Shown here: positions 1,004 to 60,224 of the stretch, one piece after another | How positions within the stretch are numbered: position 1 is the stretch's first letter | How the letters are laid out: each line of letters begins with the position of its first letter | From: Candidatus Melainabacteria bacterium | Lineage (GTDB): Bacteria; Cyanobacteriota; Vampirovibrionia; 2-02-FULL-35-15 | DNA: 64,000 nt | Reading direction: 5' to 3' | NCBI GenBank assembly: GCA_023250155.1 | Contig: JAHFBG010000005.1 | Location: forward strand, 89,057-153,056 | Notes under the pieces: model-generated | Seen by the model: the letters and a program-made list of their open reading frames with translations, nothing else | Database searches by the model: none | Told to the model about the DNA's origin: nothing | Made by a program: the position numbers and the translations under genes

Positions 1004-3406
1004 ATGAATAAAGAAATAAAACAAAAAAACTTTAGAACTTTAGTTGATCTGTTTATTTGCATAGTTATTGTTTTAGTCTTATTTATACCTACAATAAGTA
1101 GACCTTGGATCTCTTATGATGAGAGAGGCATCACTAATGAGTTGTATCTGCCCATACCAACCTCTTTCCAAGAGATATACGAGATTATTGAAAGTTTTGG
1201 TTTAAATTATAGTGTAACTTCTTCAAATACCCTCTACAGTTCAAATTACATAACAAGAACATGTCCACTAAGTACAATCTTAACGCTATCAGTTTTATAT
1301 CTATTTAAGAGCAATTCAATTTACTATCACCTAATGAATTTGTGCTTACATTTAATAACTACTTGTCTTATTTTTATTATTTTAAAGAACTTGCTAAAAG
1401 CCTGTCCAAGACCGTTGATAATTCTTTTAACAATTCTCTGGGGAATTCATCCAGTAGAACTAGAGTCAGTATTATTATCAACAAACTTTGGAGCACTTAT
1501 ATCTTACATGTTCTTTTTTATCTTTCTATTAGACTTCTTAAAAAACAAAGAAAAAAATAAGTCCATTCTTCGACAATGCTTAATACCTCTACTCTTCATG
1601 ATTCCAATGCTCACCAATGAATATATAATCACACTCCCTCTTGTTCTATTTACATTCTCATTCTATGAAAATTATAAAAATAATGATTTTAGAAAAGCTA
1701 TTTCTTTAACCATCATTCACACTAAGCCTTATTTTATTGGACTATTTATATACATACTTTATTTCTTTTTTATATCTCACTACAGTATAAGCCAAACTTC
1801 AAACCATAACTATTTTCTTCTGTTAATAGAACGGGGTTTTTGGCTTTCTCCTCAAGTATTTTTTCACTTGATTAAGCTTGTTTTCTTTCCATTCAAGCTC
1901 TCAATTGATCAAGGAGTCTTTGTAACACTTGGAAAATCTTTATTTGACCCTTATTCTATTTTTTGTATTTTATTTATGTCTATTTGGCTTTTTGTACCAT
2001 TGATATTTTTTCTATCAAAAAGAAAACTAGAAAATCTATTTCTTTTAACCTGGTCTTTTTTCTTTGCTCTATTACCATTTCTACATATTCTTATGCCATC
2101 GTATACCCTTGCTGCAGAACGATATCTTTATGCTCCGTTAGCAATAATGATCATAGGGGTAGGAATCATGTTAAATGAAAACATCCATAAGTACGGGTCC
2201 CGCCCACAAAGTGGGCGAGGCTCGCTCGAAAACCGAGTGGCACGACCCGCACCTACTAGTAAGGGCATACTGCAGTATGCCCTTACACTAATCATAGTGC
2301 TTTGTTTCATGCGCTCATATATTCGAACACAGGACTGGAAAAATGATTTCACTCTTGCCAATTCAACTATTCAAATCACTGACAACTTACTGTTAAAAGG
2401 TATAAGAACACAAGACCTAGGACAAACATTTTTAAAATCAAATCCCAATAATCTTACTAAAGCTTATAAACACTTCACGAAAGCTCAAGAATACTTCTAC
2501 CAAGCCATAGAAAAACTAAAACAAGAAAAAAAAGAAAATCCAAAGATACCACTCATTCTAAAAAGCTATGGACTTGATTATGATTCTCTTAGTGTAAAAG
2601 CTATATATCTAATCTGTGTTGAACCGTTTAACAACAATTCAGAAAATAAAAAAGACTATGAAGATGCCTTGAGAATTCTTATCCCTTATTTAAAACACAT
2701 TAAGATCTTTGATCCACGCACGCTGGAACTCTATGCAAATCTCTTAATAAAAAATAATGATCTAGAAAGTGCAAAAAAGATTTTTCTTTATGCTTACAAT
2801 AAATACCCAACCCAGCAAACATTGCTAATTTCACTAATTCGGTTAAATAGAGATATTGAAAGAAACTTACCCGAAGCAAAAAATTATCTCTTAAAAGCTT
2901 TAAGGTTGTATCCTTATTCAAAAGATATATTGTTCGAAGCAGTAAGATACTATCAGACAGAGAACAATTTAGAAGAATATTCTAGATATGCATATTTATA
3001 TGGACTACGAGCTCACTCTGCTTTTACTTATAGAGAAGCACTTACAGGATTTTTAACTCTTGGAACTCTTGATAAAGCCAAACAAGCTGTAGAAAAACTC
3101 TTGAGACTTGATCCAAGCAATCCAAGAACTTTATATCTTGTAAGTAGTTACTATATAAAAATACAAAACTATGATCTAGCCATTACACTACTAAATCAAG
3201 CATTAACACTTAATCAAAATAAAGACAAACAACTCGAATTTGATTTAAATAACTTATTAGCTAACTTATATCTGGCTCAGGGAAGCATAGAACAAGGCAT
3301 TCACCACATAATAGAAGCATTAAATATAGACAAAGAAAATATAGTCAATAAAAACAAAATGAATGAACTAATTAAAAGATATAGACTAAACCTACATGTA
3401 CCTTAA
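1004..3406 (+). CDS. Polytopic membrane protein with C-terminal TPR repeats, TMTC/PMT-like GT-C glycosyltransferase candidate; carries an in-frame GC-rich repeat insertion
   Basis: N-terminal multi-TM domain with a D-E (SYDERG) motif in the first loop. Conserved FWLSPQVFFHLIKLVFFPF block shared with ORFs 12653..14908 and 31935..33962. C-terminal TPR-like helical repeats. Confidence 0.55.
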   Translation: MNKEIKQKNFRTLVDLFICIVIVLVLFIPTISRPWISYDERGITNELYLPIPTSFQEIYEIIESFGLNYSVTSSNTLYSSNYITRTCPLSTILTLSVLYLFKSNSIYYHLMNLCLHLITTCLIFIILKNLLKACPRPLIILLTILWGIHPVELESVLLSTNFGALISYMFFFIFLLDFLKNKEKNKSILRQCLIPLLFMIPMLTNEYIITLPLVLFTFSFYENYKNNDFRKAISLTIIHTKPYFIGLFIYILYFFFISHYSISQTSNHNYFLLLIERGFWLSPQVFFHLIKLVFFPFKLSIDQGVFVTLGKSLFDPYSIFCILFMSIWLFVPLIFFLSKRKLENLFLLTWSFFFALLPFLHILMPSYTLAAERYLYAPLAIMIIGVGIMLNENIHKYGSRPQSGRGSLENRVARPAPTSKGILQYALTLIIVLCFMRSYIRTQDWKNDFTLANSTIQITDNLLLKGIRTQDLGQTFLKSNPNNLTKAYKHFTKAQEYFYQAIEKLKQEKKENPKIPLILKSYGLDYDSLSVKAIYLICVEPFNNNSENKKDYEDALRILIPYLKHIKIFDPRTLELYANLLIKNNDLESAKKIFLYAYNKYPTQQTLLISLIRLNRDIERNLPEAKNYLLKALRLYPYSKDILFEAVRYYQTENNLEEYSRYAYLYGLRAHSAFTYREALTGFLTLGTLDKAKQAVEKLLRLDPSNPRTLYLVSSYYIKIQNYDLAITLLNQALTLNQNKDKQLEFDLNNLLANLYLAQGSIEQGIHHIIEALNIDKENIVNKNKMNELIKRYRLNLHVP
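2191..2288. repeat. GC-rich nested-palindrome element inserted in frame in a CDS (encodes ..SRPQSGRGSLENRVARPAPTSKGILQYAL..)
   Basis: Local GC spike in AT-rich CDS. Hairpins cgggtc..gacccg, cgcccac-aaa-gtgggcg, and perfect palindrome agggcatactgcagtatgccct. Shares the tcccgccca..ggcgaggctcgct core with the insert in the UbiD gene at 62501..62605. Confidence 0.5.
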
Positions 3407-3466: not shown

Positions 3467-5749
3467 TTAAAAATATTTTAAGACACAATTATGAATTGTA
3501 GCTTGCTGCTTTAAAATATCTTCACTAAAGGCATTAACAAATAACTTGTTTTTCTTAATCGTATGATCTATTTCCATGATCCGCTTCAGATACTTCGTAG
3601 CATCGATTTCACTTTGAAATAAAAGCATTACTTTAGTATTATAAGATTCTGGAAAAATAGCTACTTTTTCACTCAAATATACATTAAAAGTCCAATAAGC
3701 TCTCCTAGGAAAAGTAGAAATATATTTTTCTTGATCTGTAAATTCCAATAACATTGCTTTTGCATTAGGCAAATATTTATCTTCTATCTCAATAAGAGGC
3801 TTTAGCACACCTTCTTGAATTAATTTTTCAATCAATCCTAAATCAACAAATGGAGCTGTTCTACTATCTAAAAACAACCACTTAATATTTAATTCTTTTA
3901 TTAAATAGGGATCTAATGTTTGTAGCAAAGTAATATACGTTGCTTTTCTAGATAAGCTTGAGCCATTAATAGAGTAACAAGGTATCCCTACATAACCAAA
4001 TGGTAAAGAATTTATAGACAATCCACATTCATTGCTTTGTGAATGTTTTTGTAGATACTCAACAATTTCAGTAAATGATTTATCTGCATCTAATTTCCCC
4101 CTTAAGGATAATAATAAATTAGTTGAACTATTAAAAGTACTATCATGTAACCCAAGTTGAATTTTATTTATAAAATCATGATTTAAATAAATAGACGGGG
4201 AAAATATGCCACCTAAGACCAATGTTATAACTGGCTGGGAAATTATTATTACAACAAACAATATATTTTTGAATGTATTTAAAAATCTCACCCGCATTAC
4301 AAATGCCATATTGAATATACACAGTATAAATAAGCAAGTTAAAAGCTCATGTGCAGGATGATAAAGCCTTAAAATGTCTGGGGGAGAAGTCTTTATTAAG
4401 ACAAAAAATGGAATAATATATGAAATCAAAATAAATGACAGAATAAAATTTGTCCAAACAAAATTCTTTCGAATTAACCAGTAAACTACAAATATTGAAA
4501 ATATAAACTGTAACCCTAGTTCACATAAAAAATCCCATGAGAAAAAATTTATAATTCTATGATGATTTAAATCACCAAATCTACCAAAGACCTCAAATTG
4601 AAATGGGTTGGATTTTAGAAGATAGATAAAGAAATCTGGAATATAAGTATAATTTTGACTTATTATTGTAGTTGCTAAACCATTAAAAACTATAATTGCT
4701 ATAAAACAAATCAAACAAATCAGATTCTTAAGAACTAATGACTTGTAATTTGATTGGTTTTTAAATATCAGAAAGAGCATAGAAGACAATAATAAAGAAG
4801 CCATAAAAATATAAAGTATCCACTCTGCTGAATGAAATAACGCCAAAGAGGTAATGAGTATTGGTATTAAGTAAATAAAACTTGAAGTCTTACTTACAAA
4901 GTTAAAATACAAAAAAAGAAGTAGTAAAAAGAACTGAACACCTAAAGTAATTGATGCAAACATAATTCCAGCACTACCTAAATCACTCATGAAGCTTCCA
5001 TGCATTCCAAGAGCACAGACAGATTCAAATAAAGACCAGCTATTAGTAACAGGTTCAATTTTAAAAATATATCGAATTAATGAATCCAGCCAAAGTAAGT
5101 TCCCCGCAAAATAAAAAGCAATACTCCCGGCTAAAGCTTGCAAAAATGATTTTCCCTCTGTAAAAAAATAAACGATGGCAAAGCAAGAGAAAAAGATCAC
5201 AACTACTGAGGTAAGAACTACAAAATGAAATGAATTCAAAACACTAATATGCATGAGCTTAGACAATAATGCACTATATATATCAAAACCATAATGATAT
5301 GGAATAAAAATAGAAGGCCATGAGTATGTCCCTGTGGGAAATTTATCACTTGTAACAAAAAAAGATGCCTGTGAAAGATGGTACCCAAAATCCCAAATAG
5401 ATGACTTATTCAAAGTTAAGTAAGTGAAAAATAAAATAAAGGTACATATTATACTTAAAATTATTAGTTGTTTAAATTCTAATGTATTCTCAAATTTGAA
5501 AACTTTTTCCTTAAAAAAAAGTCCTACTGTAATCGAAATTAAAAATAAAATTAAAATCGATACTAAAGTAGCATTCTGTACACCAATGAAATAAGCCAAG
5601 CTATAAATTAATATTAAAAAAGATGCTGTACCAAATACAAAAGAAAAAGGAAATAAATAAACAATAGAGCTTATATCAAGCAAAGTTCTTAATACAACCC
5701 ATCCAAAAAAAGGTAATATTAAAAATAACAATGAATAAATAGTTATCAT
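3467..5749 (-). CDS. Large polytopic membrane protein, paralog A of a three-member family; putative GT-C-type glycosyltransferase with C-terminal soluble domain
   Basis: 760 aa, many TM helices. Conserved loop (IWDFGYH vs IHDQAWH / IHDKEFH) and C-terminal LDPxLxxELNIKW motif shared with 5803..8121 and 8121..10421. Confidence 0.45.
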   Translation of the reverse strand: MITIYSLLFLILPFFGWVVLRTLLDISSIVYLFPFSFVFGTASFLILIYSLAYFIGVQNATLVSILILFLISITVGLFFKEKVFKFENTLEFKQLIILSIICTFILFFTYLTLNKSSIWDFGYHLSQASFFVTSDKFPTGTYSWPSIFIPYHYGFDIYSALLSKLMHISVLNSFHFVVLTSVVVIFFSCFAIVYFFTEGKSFLQALAGSIAFYFAGNLLWLDSLIRYIFKIEPVTNSWSLFESVCALGMHGSFMSDLGSAGIMFASITLGVQFFLLLLFLYFNFVSKTSSFIYLIPILITSLALFHSAEWILYIFMASLLLSSMLFLIFKNQSNYKSLVLKNLICLICFIAIIVFNGLATTIISQNYTYIPDFFIYLLKSNPFQFEVFGRFGDLNHHRIINFFSWDFLCELGLQFIFSIFVVYWLIRKNFVWTNFILSFILISYIIPFFVLIKTSPPDILRLYHPAHELLTCLFILCIFNMAFVMRVRFLNTFKNILFVVIIISQPVITLVLGGIFSPSIYLNHDFINKIQLGLHDSTFNSSTNLLLSLRGKLDADKSFTEIVEYLQKHSQSNECGLSINSLPFGYVGIPCYSINGSSLSRKATYITLLQTLDPYLIKELNIKWLFLDSRTAPFVDLGLIEKLIQEGVLKPLIEIEDKYLPNAKAMLLEFTDQEKYISTFPRRAYWTFNVYLSEKVAIFPESYNTKVMLLFQSEIDATKYLKRIMEIDHTIKKNKLFVNAFSEDILKQQATIHNCVLKYF

Positions 5750-5802
5750 AAAGTCATATCAATTATTGCTTATTTATAATATAGTGTCAAAATAGGTAAA
5801 CA

Positions 5803-8121
5803 ATGGCACTATCAATCTTAATAACAATCTGTTTTTTTTCAATTTGCACATGTTTTGGATTTTTTTATTTGAGCAAAATTTTGAAAATTAATTCTTTGCT
5901 CTTTTTAATATCATTCTCTACTTCACTAGGCATAAGTTCTTATATTTTTCTTTGTCATCTTTTATCATTTATCATGGGACCTTCAAAAGCTTCAGAGATA
6001 TCTTTATGTGTGTTATTAGCCCTAACTATAATAATATTTCTAACTTGCAAAATAAAAGAAAAACTATTCTTAGAATTTAGCAAAAATAAATTTGGTTACA
6101 TCATATTAATCACAATAATTATAATTGCATGCACTTTTTCTGCAATATATAAGCACAGTATTCATGATCAAGCATGGCATATCCCTCTTGCACAAAGCAT
6201 TTACAAAAACTCTATTTATCCACTAAGAGATTTTTTAAGACCTGATTATGCTCTTATTTATCATTTTGGCGGAGATCTCTTTAGCGGAGCCATAAATCAT
6301 CTTTCTAAAATTGGTATCTTTAATTCTTTTGAGGTAACATCTAGCATTTGTGGTGGCATAACATTCCTAAGCTTGTTTTGTCTAGCTTGGATACTAACTA
6401 AAAAATATAAGTTATCTTTAATTTCAGCATTTTGTTGTTATTTTGGCTCAGGCTTACTCTGGTTAAATGCTCTTAGTACTTATACTACCAAGAACACATC
6501 TAATCTAAGTTTCATAGAAATATTCTTATCGAAAGGTATATATGGGTACATTTATAATTCACCATCTATAACTACTTTTTCATCCTCATCTAGCCTAGGA
6601 TACCCCATCCTGATTTTATGTTTTTTCTTGTTCTACATATTAACTAAGAAAAATAATTTGAAAGATTCCATTCTCTATATTCTTAGCTTGCCTATCTGTT
6701 TATTATCACTTAGCCTTTGTGCAGGCTGGTTATGCTTATCATTTCTAGCCAGTATATCCCTATACTTATTAATAATACTTTTAACAACCCTTATAAAAAA
6801 GAGAAAGATCCCTAGTCTGGCATTCGGCGTTTTTACAATGCTTTTTGTTTTTATTCTTCTGAATATTTTTTTTAGAAATGAAATGTACTCACAAGACCAA
6901 TTTCTTGGACGTTCAAATATTTTCAATATTGTCCTTAAAGAAAATCCATTTACAGTAACTGCTTGGAGCAGTGGGGAGGTATTCACCAAAACTATCTCAT
7001 GTTTTAGCTGGGATTTTATTCAGTCTTTTGGTTTAAGTCTTATACTCTTACCTATAGTTTTTATTTATTTATTAAAGTATAAAAATAAATTCTCTATATT
7101 GCTTTTTCTAGTACCACTTTTAACAATGCCACTGCCCCTATTATTTGAGTTCAAGCTAAGTCCTGTTGACTTTAATAGGCTGTTTGGTTTTGGAAATATC
7201 ATGCTTATACTTTTAACAACAACTGGAATTGGTTTACTTTATAAGAACTTTACTAATAATAAGCTTCTTCTTATAACTTATGTCATGTTCTTTTGTCTCT
7301 CATCACTTGCTGGATTATTAATTGGTGTTTTATTTTGTCCACAAATGTATTCAGATGCAGTCTTTACCAAGACTGCATTGCACAACCTTAGCAAAACAAA
7401 TTCCTTCGATGATTTATTCAAATTTCAAACAGAAATAACTAGAGACGCTCTAATGTCAAAATATTTATTCTCAGATAAATATAAAAGTGAGGTTAACTTC
7501 TTTACAAAATATGGTATGTCTTCTGATGTTGCTATAAGTAGTATCCCAGGTATTCCAATTTATTCTGGAGTTTATACTCTTATTCCATCAATGATGTATG
7601 GGCTAAAGAGTCAAATCTATTCTGGCTTTGACAATATTTATCCAACAGTTATTACTACACTAGATCCACATTTATTAAATGAACTGAATATAAAATGGGT
7701 GGGATATGATGAAGTATCAAAGAAAAAACTTCCTAAAGAAACACTTGACTTTCTAAATGACAGAAATATATTCATGTTGGTTTATTCAAGTCAAATCGAA
7801 CCAGATCCTAAGAATAAAATCTCTTATCAAATATTTCAAGTGAGTAACTTAACAAATCAATTACAAAATTATAAAAGACAAGCAGGATGGATACTGGTAG
7901 ATAAGGAAGGTAACCCAATTGAAATCATACAAAAACTTTATCCTAACATTAGCTTGTTTACTACAGAAAAAAATGCTCTTCAATACTTAAAAAAACTCAT
8001 ATCTCAAAATTTAAATCTTAAAACACAACTAATTACTGCACAACCAATTATTATTAAAATCACGCAAGAACAATTAGCTCAAAGTGGCTTATCTATAAAA
8101 TTAGAGGAGCATATTAATTAA
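5803..8121 (+). CDS. Large polytopic membrane protein, paralog B; putative GT-C-type glycosyltransferase
   Basis: 772 aa. Same architecture and motifs as paralogs A and C. Stop overlaps the next start (TAATG). Confidence 0.45.
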   Translation: MALSILITICFFSICTCFGFFYLSKILKINSLLFLISFSTSLGISSYIFLCHLLSFIMGPSKASEISLCVLLALTIIIFLTCKIKEKLFLEFSKNKFGYIILITIIIIACTFSAIYKHSIHDQAWHIPLAQSIYKNSIYPLRDFLRPDYALIYHFGGDLFSGAINHLSKIGIFNSFEVTSSICGGITFLSLFCLAWILTKKYKLSLISAFCCYFGSGLLWLNALSTYTTKNTSNLSFIEIFLSKGIYGYIYNSPSITTFSSSSSLGYPILILCFFLFYILTKKNNLKDSILYILSLPICLLSLSLCAGWLCLSFLASISLYLLIILLTTLIKKRKIPSLAFGVFTMLFVFILLNIFFRNEMYSQDQFLGRSNIFNIVLKENPFTVTAWSSGEVFTKTISCFSWDFIQSFGLSLILLPIVFIYLLKYKNKFSILLFLVPLLTMPLPLLFEFKLSPVDFNRLFGFGNIMLILLTTTGIGLLYKNFTNNKLLLITYVMFFCLSSLAGLLIGVLFCPQMYSDAVFTKTALHNLSKTNSFDDLFKFQTEITRDALMSKYLFSDKYKSEVNFFTKYGMSSDVAISSIPGIPIYSGVYTLIPSMMYGLKSQIYSGFDNIYPTVITTLDPHLLNELNIKWVGYDEVSKKKLPKETLDFLNDRNIFMLVYSSQIEPDPKNKISYQIFQVSNLTNQLQNYKRQAGWILVDKEGNPIEIIQKLYPNISLFTTEKNALQYLKKLISQNLNLKTQLITAQPIIIKITQEQLAQSGLSIKLEEHIN

Positions 8122-10421
8122 TGTTTTGTTATATAAAGTTTTTTTTATTTTTAATTTCTATTTGTGGCTTTGGTTTTACATCTTTAGTTCAAGTGAATAA
8201 AATAAAATCACTTGTCTTGTTAATTCCATCTTCTATCATAATGGGTACAGCCTCATATTTATTTCTTACTCACATTCTTTCTTTCATTATGGGTCCACAA
8301 TCTGCTTGCATAGTAAGTTTATTAGTTTTAATTGTTTGTACAATAACACTTTTAATTACAAAAAGGAGAGAGTTTTTAAAAATAGAGAATGAATTTACAA
8401 AGAATCAACTTATAAGTTTAATCCTCCTTGCAATATCAATATGTACTCTTACCTGGCTTGCTACAAGCAAGTTTGGTATCCATGACAAAGAATTTCATAT
8501 TCCTGTCGCACTGTCTATATTTCACAACAATATTTATCCTCCAAAAGATTTTTATAGACCTGAATATCTTTTACTCTATCATTATGGGGGAGACATATTA
8601 GCTGGTGCAATAAATCATATTTGCAAGATAGAAATTCTTTCTTGTTATGAATTAACCTCAACAATTTTTAGTGGAACAACATTTTTGTGTTTTTTTGCAC
8701 TGGCTTGGCTAATAACAAATAGTTTTCAAATATCAATTCTTAGTGCATTTTGTACTTATTTTGGCGGTGGACTTTTATGGCTGGACGCTATTATACGATA
8801 TCTCTCAAACACACTACCTGCAAACTCTTATAAATGGGATTTTCTACAAACCCTTTTAAATATTGGCATCCATGGAGGAATAATTGATGCTCCATCTGTT
8901 GGCACATTTGTATCTACAAGCAGCTTTGGTAATCCTTTGCTAATTTTCTCATTGATACTTTTTTGGAAATTCTTCAATGAAACCAATATTAAAATTCAGA
9001 TTGCAAATTTAATCTTTTTAACCATTTCTCTATTTAGTCTGTTCATCACTGCTGAATGGCTTTACATGACGTTTTGGGCAGGAATCATACCATTCTTACT
9101 ATTTCAAGCATTTAAGAGAAAAAATCTTGGTATGAGTGTTGTATTACTTATATCATCAATAATTCTTAATAAAACCCTTGGAAATGCTTTATTCCTACAG
9201 GATTCTATTCATCATCTTGGTCGTGCAAATATTTTTAACATCGGTATAAAAGAAAAATTGTTCTGGGTTACAAGTTGGGGGAGGCTTAGTGATATAACAA
9301 ATGAGTATAGAGAACTATCTTGTTTTTCATGGGATTTTATATCTGAGTTTGGCTTAAGTATGATTCTATTTCCACTTGTAATCATTTATTTATTTAAAGA
9401 AAGAAATAAACTTGCAATTCTTTTATTTCTATGCTCAATATTCACTATGTCACTACCCGTTATTATAGATTTTAAAATAAACCCTGTTGATGCTAATAGA
9501 TTTTTCGGGTTTGGAAACTCCATGTGTGTGATGTTAATTATAATTGGCATAAATAAAATCTTTAATTCCTATACACTTAAAAAGTTTATAGTTAGTGTTA
9601 GCATTATCGGATTTACATTGTCTCCAGTCACAGGACTAGTTCTTAGCTCAATTTTTAGTCCTTATATTTATCTAAGTAAACCGTTTGTCCATCATGTTTT
9701 TAATGAATTGAAAAAAGTTAAATCAATTGCAGAACTACAAGTTAACTTGTTAGCTTTAAATACATTGTTTTCGCAAAATTACAGATTCTATACACTCTAT
9801 CAATTTAAAAATATAATACAATTCTTAAAAGAACATAGCAAGCCAAATGATGTTGCAATTAGTAGCTCTACAGATATTTCTTTATATGCAGGTATTTATA
9901 CTTTAATACCTGCCAATGCATGGCTTTATAAGGATCTTTTATATTCACCATTTGACAGCATTTATTTAACTACACTTACTACTCTAGACTATCATCTATT
10001 AAATGAGCTAAATATTAAGTGGGTCATTCTCAGTAATCGAGCTAAACATAATCTCCCACAAGAAACTCAAAAGAAACTATTAGACAATGATATTTTAAAC
10101 TTAGTTTACATAGATAAGAATAATGATCTTGAAGTATATTACGTAAAAGCTCTAAGGAATATACTTCAAAATACTCCTCGTCAGACCGCTTGGTTATTAG
10201 TAAATAAAACTGGTAACCCTATTGAACCCAACATTCTACAAGAGAATAAAATTTCTTTATTTTCTACTTCATTTAATGCACTATCATATTTAAGCCAATT
10301 AATTAAATTGAAACTTATTGAAAAAAATGAATTGGTCACATCACAAGCTGTTGAGATAAGTAAACTTGAAGAACAAATAAATAAAGGTAATCTAGGAATC
10401 GCCCTGGATAGAAGATTTTAA
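8121..10421 (+). CDS. Large polytopic membrane protein, paralog C; putative GT-C-type glycosyltransferase
   Basis: 766 aa. The YHxGGD..GAINH block and LDYHLLNELNIKWV motif are shared with paralog B. Translationally coupled to paralog B. Confidence 0.45.
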   Translation: MFCYIKFFLFLISICGFGFTSLVQVNKIKSLVLLIPSSIIMGTASYLFLTHILSFIMGPQSACIVSLLVLIVCTITLLITKRREFLKIENEFTKNQLISLILLAISICTLTWLATSKFGIHDKEFHIPVALSIFHNNIYPPKDFYRPEYLLLYHYGGDILAGAINHICKIEILSCYELTSTIFSGTTFLCFFALAWLITNSFQISILSAFCTYFGGGLLWLDAIIRYLSNTLPANSYKWDFLQTLLNIGIHGGIIDAPSVGTFVSTSSFGNPLLIFSLILFWKFFNETNIKIQIANLIFLTISLFSLFITAEWLYMTFWAGIIPFLLFQAFKRKNLGMSVVLLISSIILNKTLGNALFLQDSIHHLGRANIFNIGIKEKLFWVTSWGRLSDITNEYRELSCFSWDFISEFGLSMILFPLVIIYLFKERNKLAILLFLCSIFTMSLPVIIDFKINPVDANRFFGFGNSMCVMLIIIGINKIFNSYTLKKFIVSVSIIGFTLSPVTGLVLSSIFSPYIYLSKPFVHHVFNELKKVKSIAELQVNLLALNTLFSQNYRFYTLYQFKNIIQFLKEHSKPNDVAISSSTDISLYAGIYTLIPANAWLYKDLLYSPFDSIYLTTLTTLDYHLLNELNIKWVILSNRAKHNLPQETQKKLLDNDILNLVYIDKNNDLEVYYVKALRNILQNTPRQTAWLLVNKTGNPIEPNILQENKISLFSTSFNALSYLSQLIKLKLIEKNELVTSQAVEISKLEEQINKGNLGIALDRRF

Positions 10422-11684: not shown

Positions 11685-12656
11685 ATGAGAAAATATACTT
11701 TTCTCATTATCAAACTAGTTCTCTTTGTAGGAATTTGTACTTGGATAGTTAAGTCAGTCAATATCACAGAATCACTTAATGTACTAAAAAAAACAAACCT
11801 GCTTTATTACTTAATAGCTTTTTTATTAAGTAATCTATCCAATATTTTTCTAACAATAAAATGGCATCGATTATCAACACCACTAAATATAAAAAGCAAT
11901 TTTTGGGAGTTATTATGTTTGAATTATATTTCCGTCTTTTATAGCATTTTTATTCCTGGGCAAGCCTCTGGAGAGGTGATTAAAGGACTAAAATTGATAA
12001 AAAAAGAGGGGTCTCATCAAACCATCTGGGTACCAATATTTATCGATAAGATAACCAATGTTTTAATCGTGTTTATAATAGGGTCCATTGCTACTTTATT
12101 AGATAGTAATTTCAGAAAAAATACAAGCTTAGTTATTTTACTTATTACAATAACAGCATTACTAGTGCTTTTGACTTTAATTCTATTCAGTGAAAATACA
12201 ACAAAAATTGTAGATTTTCTAAAAAAAATCCTCATTAATATCCTAACTATATTTAAACTGAATACTCAATTTATTAAAAACTTTTCAGTGGATTATTTTG
12301 AAAATTATAAAAAACAAGATTTAATTCTCTTAGAAACATTAATGTGGAGCTTATTTATAAAAATTCCTCCTGTTTTTTCTTTGTATTTTTTAGCTTTGAG
12401 TTTAAATATTGATTTGAATATAATCCAATCCGCATGGCTATTTTCACTTGTTTCTGTCGTAAGCCTATTACCTATAAGTTTTTCAGGGCTTGGTGTTAGA
12501 GAAGGGACTATAATTGTTTTACTATCAAAAATTGGAATACCAAATTCATTCAGCTTGAGTTTGTCTATGCTAATCTTTACTACAGGAATATTAATGGGAC
12601 TAATAGGAGGAGCACTAGAGCTGGTTTCTAGCTTTAGACTATTTAAGTCAAAATGA
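11685..12656 (+). CDS. Integral membrane protein of the flippase-like / lysyl-PG-synthase-TM-like family (UPF0104-like)
   Basis: About 8 TM helices and no soluble domain. Sits in a glycan locus. Its 3' end overlaps the next gene (ATGA). Confidence 0.4.
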   Translation: MRKYTFLIIKLVLFVGICTWIVKSVNITESLNVLKKTNLLYYLIAFLLSNLSNIFLTIKWHRLSTPLNIKSNFWELLCLNYISVFYSIFIPGQASGEVIKGLKLIKKEGSHQTIWVPIFIDKITNVLIVFIIGSIATLLDSNFRKNTSLVILLITITALLVLLTLILFSENTTKIVDFLKKILINILTIFKLNTQFIKNFSVDYFENYKKQDLILLETLMWSLFIKIPPVFSLYFLALSLNIDLNIIQSAWLFSLVSVVSLLPISFSGLGVREGTIIVLLSKIGIPNSFSLSLSMLIFTTGILMGLIGGALELVSSFRLFKSK

Positions 12657-14908
12657 GTAAAAAGTCTTGGTTCATTAACAACTATCACATTTGGATTCCT
12701 CTTCTAATAACATTTTTAATATATGCAATTTCCCTAATCTACGGATTTAGAAACTTCGATGAAGACATTTTAATAAAGAACTTTTACACACATAAAACAT
12801 TTCAAGAATATATTGAGAAATTTTTTTTAGTTCATGCTGGTGGTGCATCTAAAGCACATGGGTTTTCATTTTCAGGGGTACAGAATACTCATGTGTGTTT
12901 TCTTGGAATGCCAACCATTTATCTGGTGGCTTATCTCTTTAAAGCAAATCCTTTCTTATATCATTCATGGAGCTTGCTGTTACACTCTATTGCAGTAGTC
13001 TTTTTGGTGTTATTTGCACATCGATTAACTCAAGATAAAAAGATTGCAATGTTTACAGCATGCGCCTGGACATTACATCCTACAAATGTAGAGTCAATCA
13101 TTTGGGCTACAAACTGGTTACAGTGCTTAGGAGCAGGATTTTATTTTTTCATCTTGTGGTGGATCACATCAATCATTCATAGTGACATGCCGTGGCATGT
13201 CACTACGCGACAAACCTTTTCAATAATGCTTTTCACTACCATAGCAATTTTATTCACCGAGCACACCATTACCATACCAATTGCAATTTTTGTAACTACT
13301 TTCTATCTCTTAAACAATTTAAAACAAAAAAATGCTTTGCAAAATTCTATAAAAACAAGCTTACCATCATTTGTTGTAATATTTAGTTATTGGCTTATAA
13401 GAAATCTAATGATTTCAAAAGCAATACAAACATCTTCAAGTAATGGGTTTCATGAACTCTTGAATAGACTGCTCTTTTTAACTCCACAAGTTTTTATACA
13501 TCAAATAAAGCTTGTTTTATTTCCAGCAAATCTAACAATTGATCAATTGGATTTATTACATTTAGATCAATCATACTTCAGGAGCTATCACCTAATCTGC
13601 CTAATAACAATTGCATTAATTGGAGTAAGTATATTTCTTCTTAGAAAGAGTTTTCCATTCTTATCTTATGGACTACTGATGTACACGGTAACTCTCTTAT
13701 CTTTTATTCAAATCATTCCACTTTACTCTATGTCAGCTGAAAGATACAACTATTTTGGCTCTGCATTTATTGTCCTTGGAATTATAAGTACAATATTTCA
13801 ACTTAATAAATTTAAAAAAACAGCTCCTTATATAGCTATTTTATGGTGTTTAATACTAGGCATAAGAGGTGAGTTTAGAATATGGGACTGGAAGGATAGT
13901 AAAACACTATTCCGTAGCACAATCAACACAAGCAAATCATTCTTAAAGAAAGGGATTTGGACTTATAACCTTGCTATTTGTGAAGAAGATATAGAGAAAA
14001 AGAAAGTATTATTAACAGAGTCAAATATACTGTTGAAGCGGTTTATTCAACAACCTACAAAACGTTATGAGATTGACAAAAGCGTTGGTTTAATCCTTAC
14101 AAAGTATGAATTAGATCCTGAATCACTACTAGCAAAAGCCTCTGACAGAATAGCTACTAACTATGAAATCTTAGGAGATAAAAAAAATCAATTAAAATAT
14201 CTAAACAAAGCATTAAAATACTCAAGACCTAAATCCCAATCCAGAAGCTTAATCTATAAAAATCTTGGGACTTACTATTTTCAAGAAAGTAATTATAAAA
14301 AATCATTAGATTACTATTTTAGGAGTTATGAAATCTCACCTAATCCTACAATTTCATATGCTATAAGCATTTGTTATCTCAAGCTAAACGATTTTAACAA
14401 CTATGAGAAGTACTTAAAAGAAGCAGCTTCTGTAATTTCTCCATATAATGTTTCACCATTTAAAACCTATGGACAGTTTCTAGAACTAGAAAAGCATGAC
14501 TATGCAAATGCTCTTAAATACTATAAGATAGCAAGTTTACTTGAAAACAATGTTGAGCCTTATATCTTACTTAGTTCTCTTTATTTAAAACAAACTCAGA
14601 TTAATAAAGCCTATGAAATTATAAAGAATGGACTTCATAGTTTTCCAGAAAATCCTACACTCATTTATTTTCGAGGAACGGTAAATTTAAATAAAGGTAA
14701 AATTAATGATGGGCTACAAGATTTAATCAATGTAATTAAAAAAACTGATACTTCAAATGATATTAAAATCGAGGCTTGCCATATTCTTGTTAACCTATTT
14801 CTTAACCAAAATGATTATAATAATGCTAAAAAATATAATGATTTGATTCTATCCATAAATCCCAACGATAAAGAAGCTAATGAGTTAAAAAGAACTGAAA
14901 TTTATTGA
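12653..14908 (+). CDS. Polytopic membrane protein with C-terminal TPR repeats, TMTC/PMT-like GT-C candidate
   Basis: FDEDIL in first loop. FLTPQVFIHQIKLVLFPANLTIDQ block paralogous to the 1004 and 31935 ORFs. TPR-like C-terminal half. Confidence 0.55.
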   Translation: MSKKSWFINNYHIWIPLLITFLIYAISLIYGFRNFDEDILIKNFYTHKTFQEYIEKFFLVHAGGASKAHGFSFSGVQNTHVCFLGMPTIYLVAYLFKANPFLYHSWSLLLHSIAVVFLVLFAHRLTQDKKIAMFTACAWTLHPTNVESIIWATNWLQCLGAGFYFFILWWITSIIHSDMPWHVTTRQTFSIMLFTTIAILFTEHTITIPIAIFVTTFYLLNNLKQKNALQNSIKTSLPSFVVIFSYWLIRNLMISKAIQTSSSNGFHELLNRLLFLTPQVFIHQIKLVLFPANLTIDQLDLLHLDQSYFRSYHLICLITIALIGVSIFLLRKSFPFLSYGLLMYTVTLLSFIQIIPLYSMSAERYNYFGSAFIVLGIISTIFQLNKFKKTAPYIAILWCLILGIRGEFRIWDWKDSKTLFRSTINTSKSFLKKGIWTYNLAICEEDIEKKKVLLTESNILLKRFIQQPTKRYEIDKSVGLILTKYELDPESLLAKASDRIATNYEILGDKKNQLKYLNKALKYSRPKSQSRSLIYKNLGTYYFQESNYKKSLDYYFRSYEISPNPTISYAISICYLKLNDFNNYEKYLKEAASVISPYNVSPFKTYGQFLELEKHDYANALKYYKIASLLENNVEPYILLSSLYLKQTQINKAYEIIKNGLHSFPENPTLIYFRGTVNLNKGKINDGLQDLINVIKKTDTSNDIKIEACHILVNLFLNQNDYNNAKKYNDLILSINPNDKEANELKRTEIY

Positions 14909-22038: not shown

Positions 22039-22043
22039 TTAAA

Positions 22044-22160
22044 AAAAGCATCTTTCATTCCACAGTGCCCTCCCTCAACTCCTCTGACCATTAACTAAGC
22101 GTTAACGGTTCCCCTCGGGGCATTCGGGAGTGGCACTGCTACATCATGCTTTTTTTTACA
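22044..22160 (+). repeat. Copy A of a ~110-nt nested-hairpin repeat element ending in a T-tract; probably acts as a terminator
   Basis: aaagcat…agtgccctccc…ccattaactaagcgttaacgg…cccctcgggg…gggagtggcact…atgcttttttt. Second copy at 23077..23185. Confidence 0.5.
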
Positions 22161-23042: not shown

Positions 23043-23076
23043 ATGTATTAACTGGTATTGCATCTCTGAATACAAA

Positions 23077-23185
23077 AAGCATCTTACACTCCATATTGCC
23101 TTCCCTCAGCCCCTCCGACCATTAACTAGGCGTTAACAGTTCCCGTCGGGACATTCGGGAATGGCAATATTAAATCGTGCTTTTT
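23077..23185 (+). repeat. Copy B of the nested-hairpin repeat element
   Basis: About 85% identical to copy A. Differences are compensatory in stems (agtgcc/ggcact becomes attgcc/ggcaat; ctccc/gggag becomes ttccc/gggaa). Confidence 0.5.
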
Positions 23186-39032: not shown

Positions 39033-40115
39033 ATGAAAGAAAAAATGCTTAAGTATCTTTGTTGTCCTGAATGTAGCTCTAATATAGAGTTAGCTAGACA
39101 TAAAGGAATTGACTCAACAAATCATATCACTGAGGGTGAATTAGTTTGTACTGGATGCAAAAATACTTATCCCATTATAAGTGGCGTGCCATTTTTCTGT
39201 TTAAATACAGATGATAAAACAGTAGACTTAAATAGAAAGAATTTTGCCAGTGAGTGGAACTACTTTACATCCTCAATGGGAGATAAAAATGAACAGCTTG
39301 CAAAAGATGAATTAGAAAGTTATTTTTCTCCATTTGTTCAGTTTAAAGATTTAGAAGATAAGAGTGTTCTTGAAGGTGGTTGTGGTGGTGGAAGATTAGT
39401 TTATGCAGCAGCAAAATACTCAGGGGCAAAAGAGATAATAGGCGTTGACTTATCAAATGCAGTAATAACAGCTTTTAAAAACACCAGACATCTCCCTAAT
39501 GTTTCAATTATTCAGGCAGATATTACAAATCTACCTTTTAAAAAAGATAAAATGTTTGATTTTATTTATTCTGTTGGTGTATTACACCACATGCCAAATC
39601 CATATTTAGGTTTCAGCTCTTTAGTAGAACATTTAAAAAAAGATGGCAAGATCCTTGCCTGGGTATATGGAAAAGAAGGAAACTCACTATACATAAACTT
39701 TGCAGACCCAATAAGGAAACTAATCACTTCAAGGTTTCCATTTAAAGTAAATCTTTACTTATCATGTTTTATATCACTTATCGTATGGGGCATCATATTA
39801 GGTTTTTATTCTCCACTCAATTTAATATTGAAAGAAAAAAATACTAATAAAGTCTTACCTTTTAATGAATACTTTAACTATTTTAGAAAAAGAGGATTTA
39901 AAGATTTTTGGAGAACTGTTTTTGATAAAATGGTTCCAACAATTTCATACTATATTTCGCATGAAGAATTTAAAACTTGGTTTGAAAAAAGCAATCTAGA
40001 ATATGAAACATATTTTCGAAATGGGCATAGCTGGACTGGGATTGGAAAATCTGCTGTAGGTCTGAGTCGCGACTCAGACCTACAGCAACATGGGTTTAAA
40101 ACAACGTATAAATAA
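39033..40115 (+). CDS. SAM-dependent methyltransferase with N-terminal Trm112-like zinc-ribbon
   Basis: LKYLCCPEC…CTGC zinc ribbon, VLEGGCGGGRL motif I, VGVLHHM. The C-terminal tail is encoded by a 34-nt palindrome. Confidence 0.6.
   Translation: MKEKMLKYLCCPECSSNIELARHKGIDSTNHITEGELVCTGCKNTYPIISGVPFFCLNTDDKTVDLNRKNFASEWNYFTSSMGDKNEQLAKDELESYFSPFVQFKDLEDKSVLEGGCGGGRLVYAAAKYSGAKEIIGVDLSNAVITAFKNTRHLPNVSIIQADITNLPFKKDKMFDFIYSVGVLHHMPNPYLGFSSLVEHLKKDGKILAWVYGKEGNSLYINFADPIRKLITSRFPFKVNLYLSCFISLIVWGIILGFYSPLNLILKEKNTNKVLPFNEYFNYFRKRGFKDFWRTVFDKMVPTISYYISHEEFKTWFEKSNLEYETYFRNGHSWTGIGKSAVGLSRDSDLQQHGFKTTYK
40054..40087. repeat. 34-nt perfect palindrome (17-bp arms, no loop), GC-rich, inside the 3' end of the methyltransferase CDS
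   Basis: gctgtaggtctgagtcg|cgactcagacctacagc read directly. Confidence 0.6.
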
Positions 40116-57254: not shown

Positions 57255-60224
57255 ATGAACAAGTATATTCCAGCCAAATTATTTTTATCTTTTATATTAA
57301 TGGTCCAGTTATTGGTCTTACAAAATTTTTATCCTTTATATTCTCAAGCAGCGATGCCAACCTGTAGTGGAACCACAGCTGTATGCCCTTCTGGCCAAAC
57401 TGCGGTTTGTACAAATGGCCATGTTGGTACAGCAAAGTGTGTAGCACAAATTTATGGTGCACCTTATATACCAGGCTGTGAAACAGAGACTGCTTTCTAT
57501 ACTGATGATGCTAATTGTGTTAGCTCATCAACTACTAGCTCATCAACTACTAGTTCATCGACCACAAGCTCATCAACTACCAGCTCTACTAGTGGAACAT
57601 TGTCGATTACAAGTAATTCCCCTTTACCAAATGGCTCATTAAATACTTCTTACTTTAATTCACTTCAAGCTACAGGTGGTTCCCTTCCATATACCTGGTC
57701 ATGGGTTACTGGTTTCCTGCCAAGTGGTTTATTATTTACTACAAACGGTATATTGAACGGTACTCCTACTCAATCTGGTACTTTTACTCCTACCTTTAGA
57801 GTTACTGATTCTTTTAATCAAACTGCTCAACGAACTTTTTCTCTTACTATTGGAGCTCCTATATCAATTACAAGCAGTTCTGTTTTACCTAACGGTACAT
57901 CAAACTCTTTTTATTCTAATACACTTCAAGCTACTGGCGGCACTCTTCCTTACTCCTGGACATTTATTGCAGGTACTTTACCTAGTGGTTTATCATTTAG
58001 TTCTAATGGTGTTTTAAGTGGTACTCCTACTCAATCGGGTACATTCACTCCTACCTTTAGAGTTACTGATGCTTTTGGACAATCCAGCCAACAAACCTTC
58101 TCCCTTACAGTAAATTCTTTTCTGTCAATTACAACTAATGCTTTATCTAATGGTACTTTAAACTCTTTTTATTCCAATACACTTCAAGCTACTGGCGGCA
58201 ACCTTCCTTATACCTGGGCATTTATTGCAGGTACTTTACCTAGCGGTTTATCATTTAGTTCTAATGGTGTTTTAAGTGGTACTCCTACTCAATCGGGTAC
58301 ATTCACACCTACCTTTAGAGTTATTGATGCCATTGGACAATCTAGCCAAAGAACTTTCTCTCTTACTGTAAATTCCTCCCTATCAATTACAACTAGTGCT
58401 TTATCTAATGGTACTTTAAACTCTTTTTATTCCAATACACTTCAAGCTACTGGCGGCACTCTTCCTTACTCCTGGACATTTATTGCAGGTACTTTACCTA
58501 GTGGTTTATCATTTAGTTCTAACGGTGTCTTAAGTGGTACTCCTACCCAATCTGGTACTTTCACTCCTACCTTTAGAGTTACTGATGCTTTTGGACAATC
58601 CAGCCAACAAACCTTCTCTCTTACGGTAAATTCTTCTCTGTCAATTACAAGTACTACTTTATCTAACGGTACTTTAAACTCTTTTTATTCCAATACACTT
58701 CAAGCTACTGGCGGCACTCTTCCTTATTCTTGGTCATTTATTGCAGGTACTTTACCGAGTGGTTTATCATTTAGTTCTAATGGCGTTTTAAGTGGCACTC
58801 CTACTCAATCTGGTACATTCACTCCTACCTTTAGAGTTACTGATGCTCTTGGTAGCACTTTTCAAAGAACTTTCTCTCTTACTGTCAATTCTTCTCTATC
58901 AATTACAACTAGTGCTTTATCCAATGGTATTTTAAATACTTTTTACTCTTATACAGTCCAAGCTACTGGCGGTACTCTTCCATATAGCTGGTCACTTATT
59001 GCTGGTACTTTAGCAAGCGGTTTATCGTTTAGTTCAAATGGTATTGTAAGTGGTACTCCTACTCAAACAGGTACTTTTACTCCTACCTTTAGAGTTATTG
59101 ATGCCCTTGGACAGTCTAGCCAAAGAACTTTCTCTTATACCATTGCCTTACCATTATCTATTACAACTAGTCCTACCCTACCTAATGGTTCTCTAATTGC
59201 TTCTTACTCCAATACACTTCAAGCTACTGGTGGTACTCTTCCTTATACCTGGTCATTTATTGCTGGTACTTTACCTAGTGGTTTATCATTTAGCTCAAAT
59301 GGGGTTGTAAGTGGTACTCCTACTCAAACAGGCACATTCACTCCTACTTTTAGAGTTACTGATGCTCTTAGTCAATCTAGTCAACGAACTTTCTCCATTA
59401 CTGTAGATTCTTCTCAATGCCCTGTATGTCCACTTGGTTCTCCATTAGTACAATGCTCTAATACTTGTACACAACAAGTTATTAATTGTGAAGGAATGAG
59501 CTATACAAATAGCTGTGACTTCCAAATGAGTTATTGCGGCTGTATCCCAACAACATCTTCAAGCAGCTCATCATCTTCTTCAAGCAGCTCTTCTGGAGGG
59601 GTTTGTCAAAGACCTTGTGGAATAGGTTGTTGTACATCTAATCAACTCTGTGTTGTATATGATCCTTGTATGGGGAGTCCTGGTTGTTTAGCACCTATTG
59701 TTCAATATTGTGCTTCACCAACCGGTGGTGCAGTCAACCTCCCATTCTGTTCATATGGAAGTGTAATGTGTGATGTGGGTTCACCGTTGTGTTCTTCAGG
59801 AAGCAATCTTCCTATCTGTGGTTCAACACTAGGATTTACTGGTGACTTAGCTGGTCCTGCATGTACAAATCTAACAACAACAGTATTAAATGTAGGAAAT
59901 GTCTCTTGTTCACAACAACCTCTAAGCAGACTTTCTCTTGATAATGATGTTACTTGTAATAAGAACAAGCTGTGTCCATCAGGGAAGCGATATAGAGCTT
60001 GTAGAGAAGATAGAACAACATGTAAGTGTGTTTGTCCATTTAGAATTAGAGGACAAAAAGTTACACCTACTTGTAATTCCACAGATACACCAATCTGTTC
60101 AAAAGGCTTAACACCTAAGTGCGGAAATGAAAACAATATTCCATTCTGCTCTAAAGGAAAACTATTCTGTGTAGAACCAACTGCACAATCGATAGATTTA
60201 ACTGATACTATTGAGTGTAAGTAA
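57255..60224 (+). CDS. Secreted surface/adhesin-like protein: signal peptide, Ser/Thr-rich linker, ~7.5 tandem He_PIG/cadherin-like Ig repeats, poly-Ser tract, Cys-rich C-terminal domain
   Basis: MNKYIPAKLFLSFILMVQLLVL signal sequence. SSSTTSSSTT linker. ~81-aa repeats with LP.G..F...G.LSGTPT..GTF.PTFRV.D motif. S13GG tract. Many Cys in the last 230 aa. Confidence 0.65.
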   Translation: MNKYIPAKLFLSFILMVQLLVLQNFYPLYSQAAMPTCSGTTAVCPSGQTAVCTNGHVGTAKCVAQIYGAPYIPGCETETAFYTDDANCVSSSTTSSSTTSSSTTSSSTTSSTSGTLSITSNSPLPNGSLNTSYFNSLQATGGSLPYTWSWVTGFLPSGLLFTTNGILNGTPTQSGTFTPTFRVTDSFNQTAQRTFSLTIGAPISITSSSVLPNGTSNSFYSNTLQATGGTLPYSWTFIAGTLPSGLSFSSNGVLSGTPTQSGTFTPTFRVTDAFGQSSQQTFSLTVNSFLSITTNALSNGTLNSFYSNTLQATGGNLPYTWAFIAGTLPSGLSFSSNGVLSGTPTQSGTFTPTFRVIDAIGQSSQRTFSLTVNSSLSITTSALSNGTLNSFYSNTLQATGGTLPYSWTFIAGTLPSGLSFSSNGVLSGTPTQSGTFTPTFRVTDAFGQSSQQTFSLTVNSSLSITSTTLSNGTLNSFYSNTLQATGGTLPYSWSFIAGTLPSGLSFSSNGVLSGTPTQSGTFTPTFRVTDALGSTFQRTFSLTVNSSLSITTSALSNGILNTFYSYTVQATGGTLPYSWSLIAGTLASGLSFSSNGIVSGTPTQTGTFTPTFRVIDALGQSSQRTFSYTIALPLSITTSPTLPNGSLIASYSNTLQATGGTLPYTWSFIAGTLPSGLSFSSNGVVSGTPTQTGTFTPTFRVTDALSQSSQRTFSITVDSSQCPVCPLGSPLVQCSNTCTQQVINCEGMSYTNSCDFQMSYCGCIPTTSSSSSSSSSSSSSGGVCQRPCGIGCCTSNQLCVVYDPCMGSPGCLAPIVQYCASPTGGAVNLPFCSYGSVMCDVGSPLCSSGSNLPICGSTLGFTGDLAGPACTNLTTTVLNVGNVSCSQQPLSRLSLDNDVTCNKNKLCPSGKRYRACREDRTTCKCVCPFRIRGQKVTPTCNSTDTPICSKGLTPKCGNENNIPFCSKGKLFCVEPTAQSIDLTDTIECK
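57597..59410 (+). repeat. Tandem ~243-nt coding repeats (~7.5 copies); some units near-identical at nucleotide level
   Basis: Repeat units 2 and 4 encode identical peptide stretches (TLPYSWTFIAGTLPSGLSFSSNGVLSGTPTQSGTFTPTFRVTDAFGQSSQQTFSLTVNS). Confidence 0.7.

Follow-up and report, generated by a model that had tools for sequence, protein, structure and literature searches.

A small GC-rich double-hairpin element inserted in frame in genes of Melainabacteria and Patescibacteria

Introduction

To our knowledge, in-frame palindromic elements in bacterial proteins are textbook knowledge essentially from Rickettsia, and the mechanism by which they move has never been solved. Repetitive extragenic palindromic (REP) sequences lie outside genes, and miniature inverted-repeat transposable elements, or MITEs, come with terminal inverted repeats, duplications of the target site, and a parent insertion sequence (IS). 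Here we describe a GC-rich double-hairpin element, two copies of which lie in frame in genes of a 64,000-nucleotide stretch of DNA (the window) from a Candidatus Melainabacteria bacterium (assembly GCA_023250155.1, contig JAHFBG010000005.1, positions 89,057–153,056). The two copies are probably members of a dispersed, DNA-level, very small insertion element rather than native coding sequence, moved, as we infer, by break repair that involves a GIY-YIG nuclease.

The Rickettsia palindromic elements (RPEs) are palindromic repeats of ~150 bp that make up ten Rickettsia-specific families, each with a conserved peptide, and they are inserted in frame in many unrelated genes (PMC10969869). In mitochondria, GC clusters and double-hairpin elements are tiny, GC-rich, hairpin-forming sequences scattered in AT-rich genomes. 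Their stems are conserved, their loops vary, they form merged or nested arrays, and the mechanism of their transposition is unknown (PMC4478555; see also PMC2800124). Most GC42 clusters of yeast lie between genes, and their target is an AG dinucleotide (PMC4478555), and the double-hairpin elements of Allomyces go back to Paquin et al. 2000, as cited in PMC4478555. In phage T4, SegB is described as a site-specific GIY-YIG endonuclease driving the inheritance of the phage's tRNA gene region (PMC2330249).

Results

The element in a gene for a GT-C/TPR-like membrane protein

The GC content of the window is 31.6%, and its strongest GC island lies at 2175–2285, with a 60-nt peak of 0.70. The original prediction, made from the sequence of the window, had described nested inverted repeats in this GC-rich block of an AT-rich gene, and the sequence is as described. 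The RNA fold of 2185–2295 has an energy of −53.9 kcal/mol, compared with −28.9 ± 3.4 kcal/mol in dinucleotide shuffles (z = −7.45), and none of 200 shuffles was as good. Nucleotides 2194–2249 form a GC-rich three-way structure in which a closing stem of 6 bp encloses two hairpins. The closing stem, P1, pairs CGGGTC (2194–2199) with GACCCG (2244–2249) in both the minimum free energy and the centroid folds. The double-hairpin element itself (copy 1) occupies 42 nt at 2200–2241 and reads CCGCCCACAAAGTGGGCG-AG-GCTCGCTCGAAAACCGAGTGGC, as judged from its sequence, its fold, and a covariance model score of 55.2 bits (2193–2248). Hairpin A (2201–2217) is CGCCCAC-AAA-GTGGGCG. It is followed by an AG linker (2218–2219) and by hairpin B (2220–2241), GC-T-CGCTCG-AAAAC-CGAGTG-GC, which carries a bulged T. 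These features and both host genes are on the forward strand.

Copy 1 lies in frame within an open reading frame (ORF) at 1004–3406, which encodes a polytopic membrane protein of 800 aa with a C-terminal TPR domain, identified by TPR Pfam matches, and of GT-C/TPR-like type. The homologs of this protein are named Melainabacteria, and its AlphaFold2 (AF2) model has a mean per-residue confidence (pLDDT) of 82. The element codes for residues ~400–413. In the model, residues 397–416 are a coil with pLDDT below 50 between two helices, residues 372–398 and 417–444. In alignment, a gap stands at the site of copy 1 in the two closest orthologs, P0002 and P0003 (62–63% identical, 776 aa), and likewise in the adjacent paralog, P0004. 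P0002 is the positional ortholog, because its gene order is the same as in the window, and the empty-site comparison with it was made at the protein level. The alignment thus identifies the segment as an insertion. Since the element codes for residues 400–413 inside the low-confidence coil 397–416, the insertion comprises about 16–20 aa (residues ~398–416). The block had been predicted to keep the frame open, which it does, and to add ~33 aa, which the ortholog gaps and the modeled loop reduce to about half.

A perfect 28-nt palindrome, GTAAGGGCATACTGCAGTATGCCCTTAC, lies beside copy 1 at 2259–2286 and had been taken as a part of the element. We rejected this assignment, since a search of the window and of every retrieved locus turned up no related copy of the palindrome and since it codes for the start of the predicted helix 417–444. 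It stands outside the repeated family.

The element in the UbiD gene

The core of copy 1 had been predicted to recur at 62501–62605 in a UbiD gene. It does recur there, but over a shorter extent, 62555–62587. The host gene (61784–63436) encodes a UbiD-family decarboxylase, whose homologs have the Pfam domains UbiD_N, UbiD, and UbiD_C. Copy 2 is a minimal form of 33 nt, CCGCCCAATGAGGCG-AG-GCTCGCTGGAAGCGGC, that codes for residues 258–268 and scores 49.3 bits with the covariance model (62548–62594). It is abutted on both sides by a 14-nt direct repeat composed of two heptamers, AATCCTCAATCCTC, at 62541–62554 on the left and at 62588–62601 on the right. Deleting the 33 nt of copy 2 alone leaves (AATCCTC)x4 and keeps the frame, and deleting copy 2 together with one repeat breaks it. 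On its own, copy 2 folds no better than chance (z = −1.05). The allele that carries it is identical across three independent ENA assemblies.

The loop that contains copy 2 is hypervariable, differing in length and sequence in every melainabacterial UbiD homolog, and its residues 235–271 have pLDDT below 50 in the AF2 model. Both window sites are therefore predicted to be disordered. The 13-mer GGCGAGGCTCGCT is present twice in the window, at 2214 and 62566, where 0.07 occurrences are expected. The two copies are translated in different frames, and for this reason there is no conserved peptide between them.

In another melainabacterium (locus L170, 2257–2345; JAHFBE010000040.1), the UbiD loop holds a different palindromic element of ~88 nt, CGTCATTGCGAG...CTCGCAATGACG. 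It translates as RHCEES..RRSNLT..MEIASP.ARNDV, a peptide that is present in the UbiD homologs P0109, P0114, P0119, P0122, and P0128, and the same element is found in an unrelated locus (L161, 5987–6067). Palindromic inserts have a hot spot in this UbiD loop.

A family in Patescibacteria and Melainabacteria

A pattern derived from the two window copies was scanned across one genome per GTDB species. The collection scans demanded the conserved core, which reads CC-CGCCC..GGGCG-AG-GC-U-CGCY..RGCG-GC; the distal stems and the loops vary. The core was found in more than 90 distinct loci from Patescibacteria (the candidate phyla radiation, CPR), from Melainabacteria genomes, and from groundwater metagenomes. 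Exact matches to the core in GTDB come from Saccharibacteria, Nealson-, Harrison-, Lipton-, and Staskawiczbacteria, Parcubacteria/Patescibacteria, two Melainabacteria, and a few others, and in metagenomes the pattern is present in at least 120 contigs. Complete genomes with the element include CP179887.1 (Nealsonbacteria) and CP129474.1 (Paceibacterota). All low-GC matches show the full two-hairpin layout, which the search pattern did not require. Matches in Streptomyces, Rathayibacter, and Acrocarpospora were discarded as one conserved GC-rich gene segment or as GC-rich chance, with no hairpin architecture. Carriage by phages was likewise rejected, the seven matches in IMG/VR all being weak (18–30 bits). 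The small repeat family foreseen from the two window copies is thus real and extends beyond this genome, into the CPR and other Melainabacteria, and the closest orthologs of the membrane protein lack the segment.

The covariance model (CM R1) was trained on 17 copies, both window copies included. It yielded at least 88 matches, with strands counted separately, in 80 metagenome loci, several copies in single loci of 6–12 kb, and no third copy in the 64-kb window. Across 88 matches, 94.6% of the cells are paired, and 141 double-sided changes were counted, compared with 54 in shuffles; pairing falls to 35–49% when the register is slid. The elements are 33–80 nt long, with modes at 33 and 42 nt. 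The central core, GGCGAG-G-CTCGCC, is an imperfect palindrome, and the element as a whole comes close to two-fold symmetry, for which reason the model gives the opposite strand a score too. Closing stem P1 is present in a subset of the members: a stem of at least 5 bp is found in 22 copies, where ~16 are expected with shuffled flanks. It is barely above this background and was rejected as a general feature of the family. The melainabacterial copies (window copy 1, L020, and L029) share the 7-bp hairpin A, CGCCCAC/GTGGGCG, which suggests a lineage-specific melainabacterial subfamily.

Chains of three or four hairpins with AGGCT/AGCCT linkers, in mixed orientations, are seen in L146 (640–830 and 2230–2400), L142 (1830–1910), and L125 (3480–3584), and among these one copy is nested within hairpin B of another. 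The element is modular and able to insert into itself.

Rfam has no family on the element, at gathering thresholds in the window, at E ≤ 10 for window positions 2100–2400, or at E ≤ 1 for eight other loci. We found no description of it in the literature on the core sequence, on CPR palindromic elements or MITEs, or on GIY-YIG genes and tRNAs of Patescibacteria. The double-hairpin family is apparently undescribed.

Insertion in coding sequences

The length is a multiple of three nucleotides in 65 of 84 copies that occur alone (solo copies) and in 2 of 8 copies within tRNA fragments. Open frames of at least 100 codons contain 64% of all copies; the proportion is 75% for copies with a length divisible by three and 29–45% for the others. 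These counts support the original prediction that in-frame insertion is tolerated or selected for. The reading frame is on one strand relative to the element in 26 cases and on the other in 33, so there is no orientation bias. The translated copies use each of the three frames and either strand, and their peptides differ accordingly.

Several hosts were recognized by eye from the translations. These are GatB, DnaG, ATP synthase α and γ, TsaD, trigger factor, LeuRS, UvrA, GyrB, IF-2, a PolX-type polymerase, and phosphoglycerate mutase. Two more, uL11 and RF2, were confirmed by PDB matches. Compared with the solved structures, uL11 has an insertion of exactly 12 aa for an element of 36 nt, and RF2 has one of exactly 11 aa for an element of 33 nt. 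Because the gaps equal the length of the element, insertion is precise and occurs without target-site duplication.

Flanking repeats of at least 6 nt accompany 8 of 93 copies, compared with ~1 expected, and a minority of the copies, that in UbiD included, lie amid short tandem arrays of 7–8-nt units. A reading of these repeats as target-site duplications was rejected, since both the window gene and L081 lose their frame when a repeat is removed with the element, and the gaps in uL11 and RF2 are exact. Since counting them as part of the insertion breaks the frame, the repeats are read as pre-existing.

The uL11 element is located at the same codon in two genomes, in L007 (minus strand, CCGCCCAATAGG...) and in L096 (1473–1508). 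The translated junctions are KAA/ARP.GEAR..GA/GIEKG, where slashes mark the borders of the element here and below. Hairpin B differs between the two copies by compensatory changes that keep the pairing. One set of orthologous copies is 98–100% identical, with coding flanks that are 53–75% identical.

Association with tRNA ends and GIY-YIG nuclease genes

In a subset of copies the closing stem and the junctions match the T-arm of a tRNA exactly, with the element between T-loop nucleotides 56 and 57. The arrangement is GGGTTC/element/RAWTCCC, followed by the 3' strand of the acceptor stem. When the element was removed in silico from 101 copies and the products were searched with ARAGORN, the only tRNAs recovered were intact neighbors, none of them reaching across the T-loop junction. 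Because splicing out the element restores no tRNA, the T-loop copies are not tRNA introns, and that explanation was rejected. The hosts of these copies are tRNA 3' fragments. In L028, the 3' end of a neighboring tRNA overlaps the start of the element by 4 nt. Among solo copies, a TTC on the left is enriched (27 of 84), and RANTY on the right, present in 4 of 84, is not; a T-loop-like target for the solo copies was dropped on this ground.

Clustering of the neighboring genes showed that only one family, GIY-YIG, repeatedly abuts the element or overlaps it. A GIY-YIG ORF abuts it in 6 loci, and the Pfam domain PF01541 was found in all three of the ORFs scanned (L039, L162, and L097; E 3e-12 to 4e-20). 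In L039, an intact tRNA-Gly ending in GGGGTTCGACTCCCCTTACCTGCTCA is directly followed by an 85-aa GIY-YIG ORF and then by GGGGTTC/element/GACTCCCCTTACCTGCTCA. The order is identical in L054 (tRNA-Pro) and L175 (tRNA-Arg), where the 3' end of the same tRNA is split by the element at TTC/RA. In L162 and L026, the tRNA 3' fragment is unlike the upstream tRNA. The layout of the GIY-YIG cassette, which is that of related loci and not of the window, has the tRNA 3' end duplicated around the ORF. The copies of the family at such junctions, beside small and free-standing GIY-YIG genes, are its longer ones.

Five GIY-YIG homologs were picked on protein similarity alone. All five, L175 among them, are directly 3' of a tRNA gene, and all five have a covariance model match (13–34 bits) within 100 nt of the ORF. 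The element of L172–L174, which L171 has in a degenerate form, begins in the 3' end of the tRNA acceptor stem, and the nuclease start codon comes directly after it. The element reads CACCCGCTCA-loop-TGAGCG-AGG-CTCGCCC-AAA-GGGCGG-CCCGCTC, and in L172 the unit of tRNA 3' part plus element is present on either side of the ORF. About 12% of 120 GIY-YIG homologs have C-terminal tails (GFPP.., GSRP.., ..GEAR.., and ..GRGS..) that are a translated T-arm and element. The GIY-YIG proteins of the CPR, ~80–95 aa in length, are predicted to consist of the catalytic domain alone.

Two of these loci have further features. In L175 (1040–1160), the duplicated tRNA-Arg 3' end that comes after the GIY-YIG ORF leads into ATGTTTTATGTT, which repeats the first codons of that ORF (ATGTTTTACGTT), from which it follows that the duplication continues beyond the tRNA and takes in part of the cassette. 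Three hairpins make up the element in L175. On the minus strand of L026 (~7385–7470), there is a second tRNA 3' fragment, GGGTTC/.../AATTCCCAGCGGCCCGACCA, with an unrelated double hairpin, ATCCGGTCATCCGACCGGAT and GCCCAGTCGAATGACTGGGC, in its T-loop. Other double-hairpin families may occupy the same T-loop position.

Other genes and repeats in the window

The membrane protein gene that carries copy 1 is part of an array of paralogous GT-C/TPR-like genes and other genes for very large polytopic membrane proteins, with members at 48–1001, 1004–3406, and 12653–14908 and in large ORFs within 3467–10421. The ORF interrupted by the start of the window (region 48–1001) is the C-terminal part of the neighboring paralog P0004.

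Three perfect palindromes with stems of 11–16 bp lie in coding sequence of the window, the one beside copy 1 and two at 13180–13205 and 40052–40087, where by our own estimate ~0.06 are expected. The palindrome at 13180–13205 was rejected as an insertion, as alignment with the paralogs shows no difference in length. Some process in this genome seems to create or keep perfect palindromes within genes.

Two intergenic GC-rich repeats of 115 nt, 83% identical, are found at 22040–22154 and 23071–23185, each bracketed by AAAAAGCAT...ATGCTTTTT. They lie upstream of genes starting at 22227 and 23177 and have no Rfam match at gathering thresholds; they are possibly a structured RNA or another small element. 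An ORF of 989 aa (57255–60224) contains seven tandem repeats of 258–261 nt that are 66–94% identical (57620–59473), preceded by 15-nt repeats at 57521–57595.

Discussion

We conclude that the GC-rich segments in the membrane protein and in UbiD are probably two copies of one very small double-hairpin insertion element of 33–62 nt. That the family is mobile, as the original prediction proposed, is suggested by its dispersal and by the gaps in the orthologs. In the mechanism that we favor, a homing-type GIY-YIG nuclease would make breaks, and repair of a break would copy the double hairpin into it, with or without the nuclease gene. The bases of the hairpins would be the part that the machinery recognizes. 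The element would enter genes precisely and without duplicating the target, and it would survive only where the frame is kept and no stop codon is added. Surviving copies mostly have a length divisible by three, lack stops in the frame that is read, and lie in surface loops that tolerate insertion, because copies that shift the frame or introduce a stop would be lost. Each copy would add 11–20 arbitrary residues rich in Gly, Arg, Pro, Ala, Ser, and Glu. The window insertions would then be neutral or near-neutral passengers in disordered loops of the GT-C/TPR protein and UbiD.

Several observations weigh against this interpretation. A filled and an empty version of one site at near-identical sequence were not found among the loci compared. 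The window lacks a GIY-YIG gene, as do L001 and the melainabacterial loci L020 and L029, and all named GIY-YIG homologs are from the CPR. Cleavage at a T-loop-like site fails to explain the solo copies, because their right flank is not T-loop-like. The invariance of the core and the limits of the family are in part a matter of ascertainment, since the scans demanded the core. Finally, the distal stems vary among the copies of a single genome but remain paired, and the conservation of some copies far exceeds that of the coding sequence around them. Together with the compensatory changes in uL11, these two points suggest ongoing constraint, correction within the hairpins, or conversion, and look less like decaying junk.

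The same three conservation points keep alive the alternative that the double hairpin is a functional RNA structure, such as a 3'-trailer or processing element or a stabilizer, of tRNA operons and GIY-YIG mRNA. The copies in genes would then be by-products or structures of the host mRNA. Strong covariation with variable distal stems agrees with such a role, as does the location of same-strand copies at stable RNA genes: besides the overlap with a tRNA 3' end in L028, a copy lies 6 nt before tRNA-Trp in L029 and another in the 23S-5S spacer in L011, and in L172–L174 the 5' arm of hairpin A is the 3' end of the tRNA acceptor. However, the copies in coding sequence have no strand preference, and with its near two-fold symmetry the element folds from either strand. 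The bias toward lengths divisible by three and the use of three frames indicate a selection filter on insertion rather than a function within the mRNA of the host. Rfam offers no match even at E ≤ 10, and the contexts are otherwise unrelated. We regard a functional RNA as an unlikely explanation.

A second alternative is an element of the REP/BIME (bacterial interspersed mosaic element) or PATE type, moved by a single-strand HUH/Y1 transposase (RAYT or the TnpA of IS200/IS605), with the two similar hairpins as its ends. Tandem hairpins with a bulged T are a feature of the ends of IS608, and here the tandem hairpins share a basal CGCCC/GGGCG and one of them has a conserved bulged T. Insertion without target duplication fits as well, and so do the modular arrays and nested copies of L146, L142, and L125. 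However, the neighboring genes within 2.5 kb of 92 copies include no recurrent transposase-like family, GIY-YIG alone recurring at the element. REPs are by definition extragenic, whereas the double-hairpin copies are largely intragenic, and there is no conserved flanking tetranucleotide beyond a partial TTC. This type of origin appears quite improbable. Ordinary coding sequence, an accident of composition, or an assembly artefact can be dismissed: the protein loops do vary freely and the UbiD copy alone folds like chance sequence, but the same core and layout recur in more than 90 unrelated loci from several phyla, in three frames and on both strands, the UbiD allele is the same in each independent assembly, and the fold of copy 1 and the repeated 13-mer far exceed expectation.

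The insertion element that we favor might be part of something larger, although this proposal is tentative and less likely than not. The double hairpins could be the miniature, non-autonomous form of an unrecognized mobile system of the CPR and its neighbors. In such a system, a GIY-YIG gene reduced to its catalytic domain would home next to or into tRNA genes, with duplicated tRNA 3' ends as portable homology arms and the double hairpin as the junction or recognition structure. The module alone would be copied precisely into breaks and would pepper uL11, RF2, LeuRS, GyrB, and IF-2. If this is true, essential proteins across whole phyla carry in-frame peptide insertions that stem from this system. 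The tRNA-linked GIY-YIG cassettes are a concrete, testable candidate partner, through which the movement of mini-elements could become experimentally approachable. The family also accounts for a class of puzzling GC-rich insertions in protein alignments of CPR and Melainabacteria. For annotators it provides a model by which the insertions are not mistaken for lineage-specific protein features, nor the translated tails of GIY-YIG ORFs for frameshifts.

We know of no report in which SegB is accompanied by such a hairpin module. The likeness lies in a small, free-standing GIY-YIG gene among tRNA genes; SegB is a phage protein, and its description, as far as it is available in PMC2330249, mentions neither a hairpin element nor a duplicated tRNA 3' end. 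With REPs, BIMEs, REPINs, and MITEs the element shares short, GC-rich, imperfect palindromes that are modular and present in many copies. It is not a REP, because it is largely intragenic, 64% of the copies being in open frames of at least 100 codons. It is not a classical MITE, because it inserts precisely and leaves the target site unduplicated. No transposase recurs within 2.5 kb on either side of 92 copies, the range in which a parent IS was sought.

The closest likeness in form, and in form only, is to the mitochondrial GC clusters (yeast GC42), the double-hairpin elements of Allomyces, and the repetitive hairpin-forming elements of sponges. All combine a GC-rich unit of two hairpins, in which the stems are conserved and the loops vary, with an AT-rich host genome. 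The family described here is bacterial and largely intragenic, with a bias toward lengths divisible by three and a candidate nuclease partner, and the two groups are set apart here by their descriptions. The original prediction had compared the element with RPEs, and in behavior the comparison stands: both are bacterial palindromic repeats that lie in frame, at tolerated positions, in unrelated and often housekeeping genes of AT-rich genomes. It does not extend to size (33–80 nt, compared with a criterion of ~100–150 bp for RPEs), to the conserved peptide, which is lacking in copies read in all frames and on both strands, or to the hosts, which are Melainabacteria and Patescibacteria. The link to tRNA ends and GIY-YIG genes is a further difference, and this separation was drawn from the published description of RPEs. 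The double-hairpin family is smaller and sharply defined, and it occurs, inside universally conserved proteins, in no fewer than two lineages that differ greatly from each other, CPR/Patescibacteria and Melainabacteria. It resembles both the RPEs and the mitochondrial double-hairpin elements and GC clusters, and it is a member of neither.

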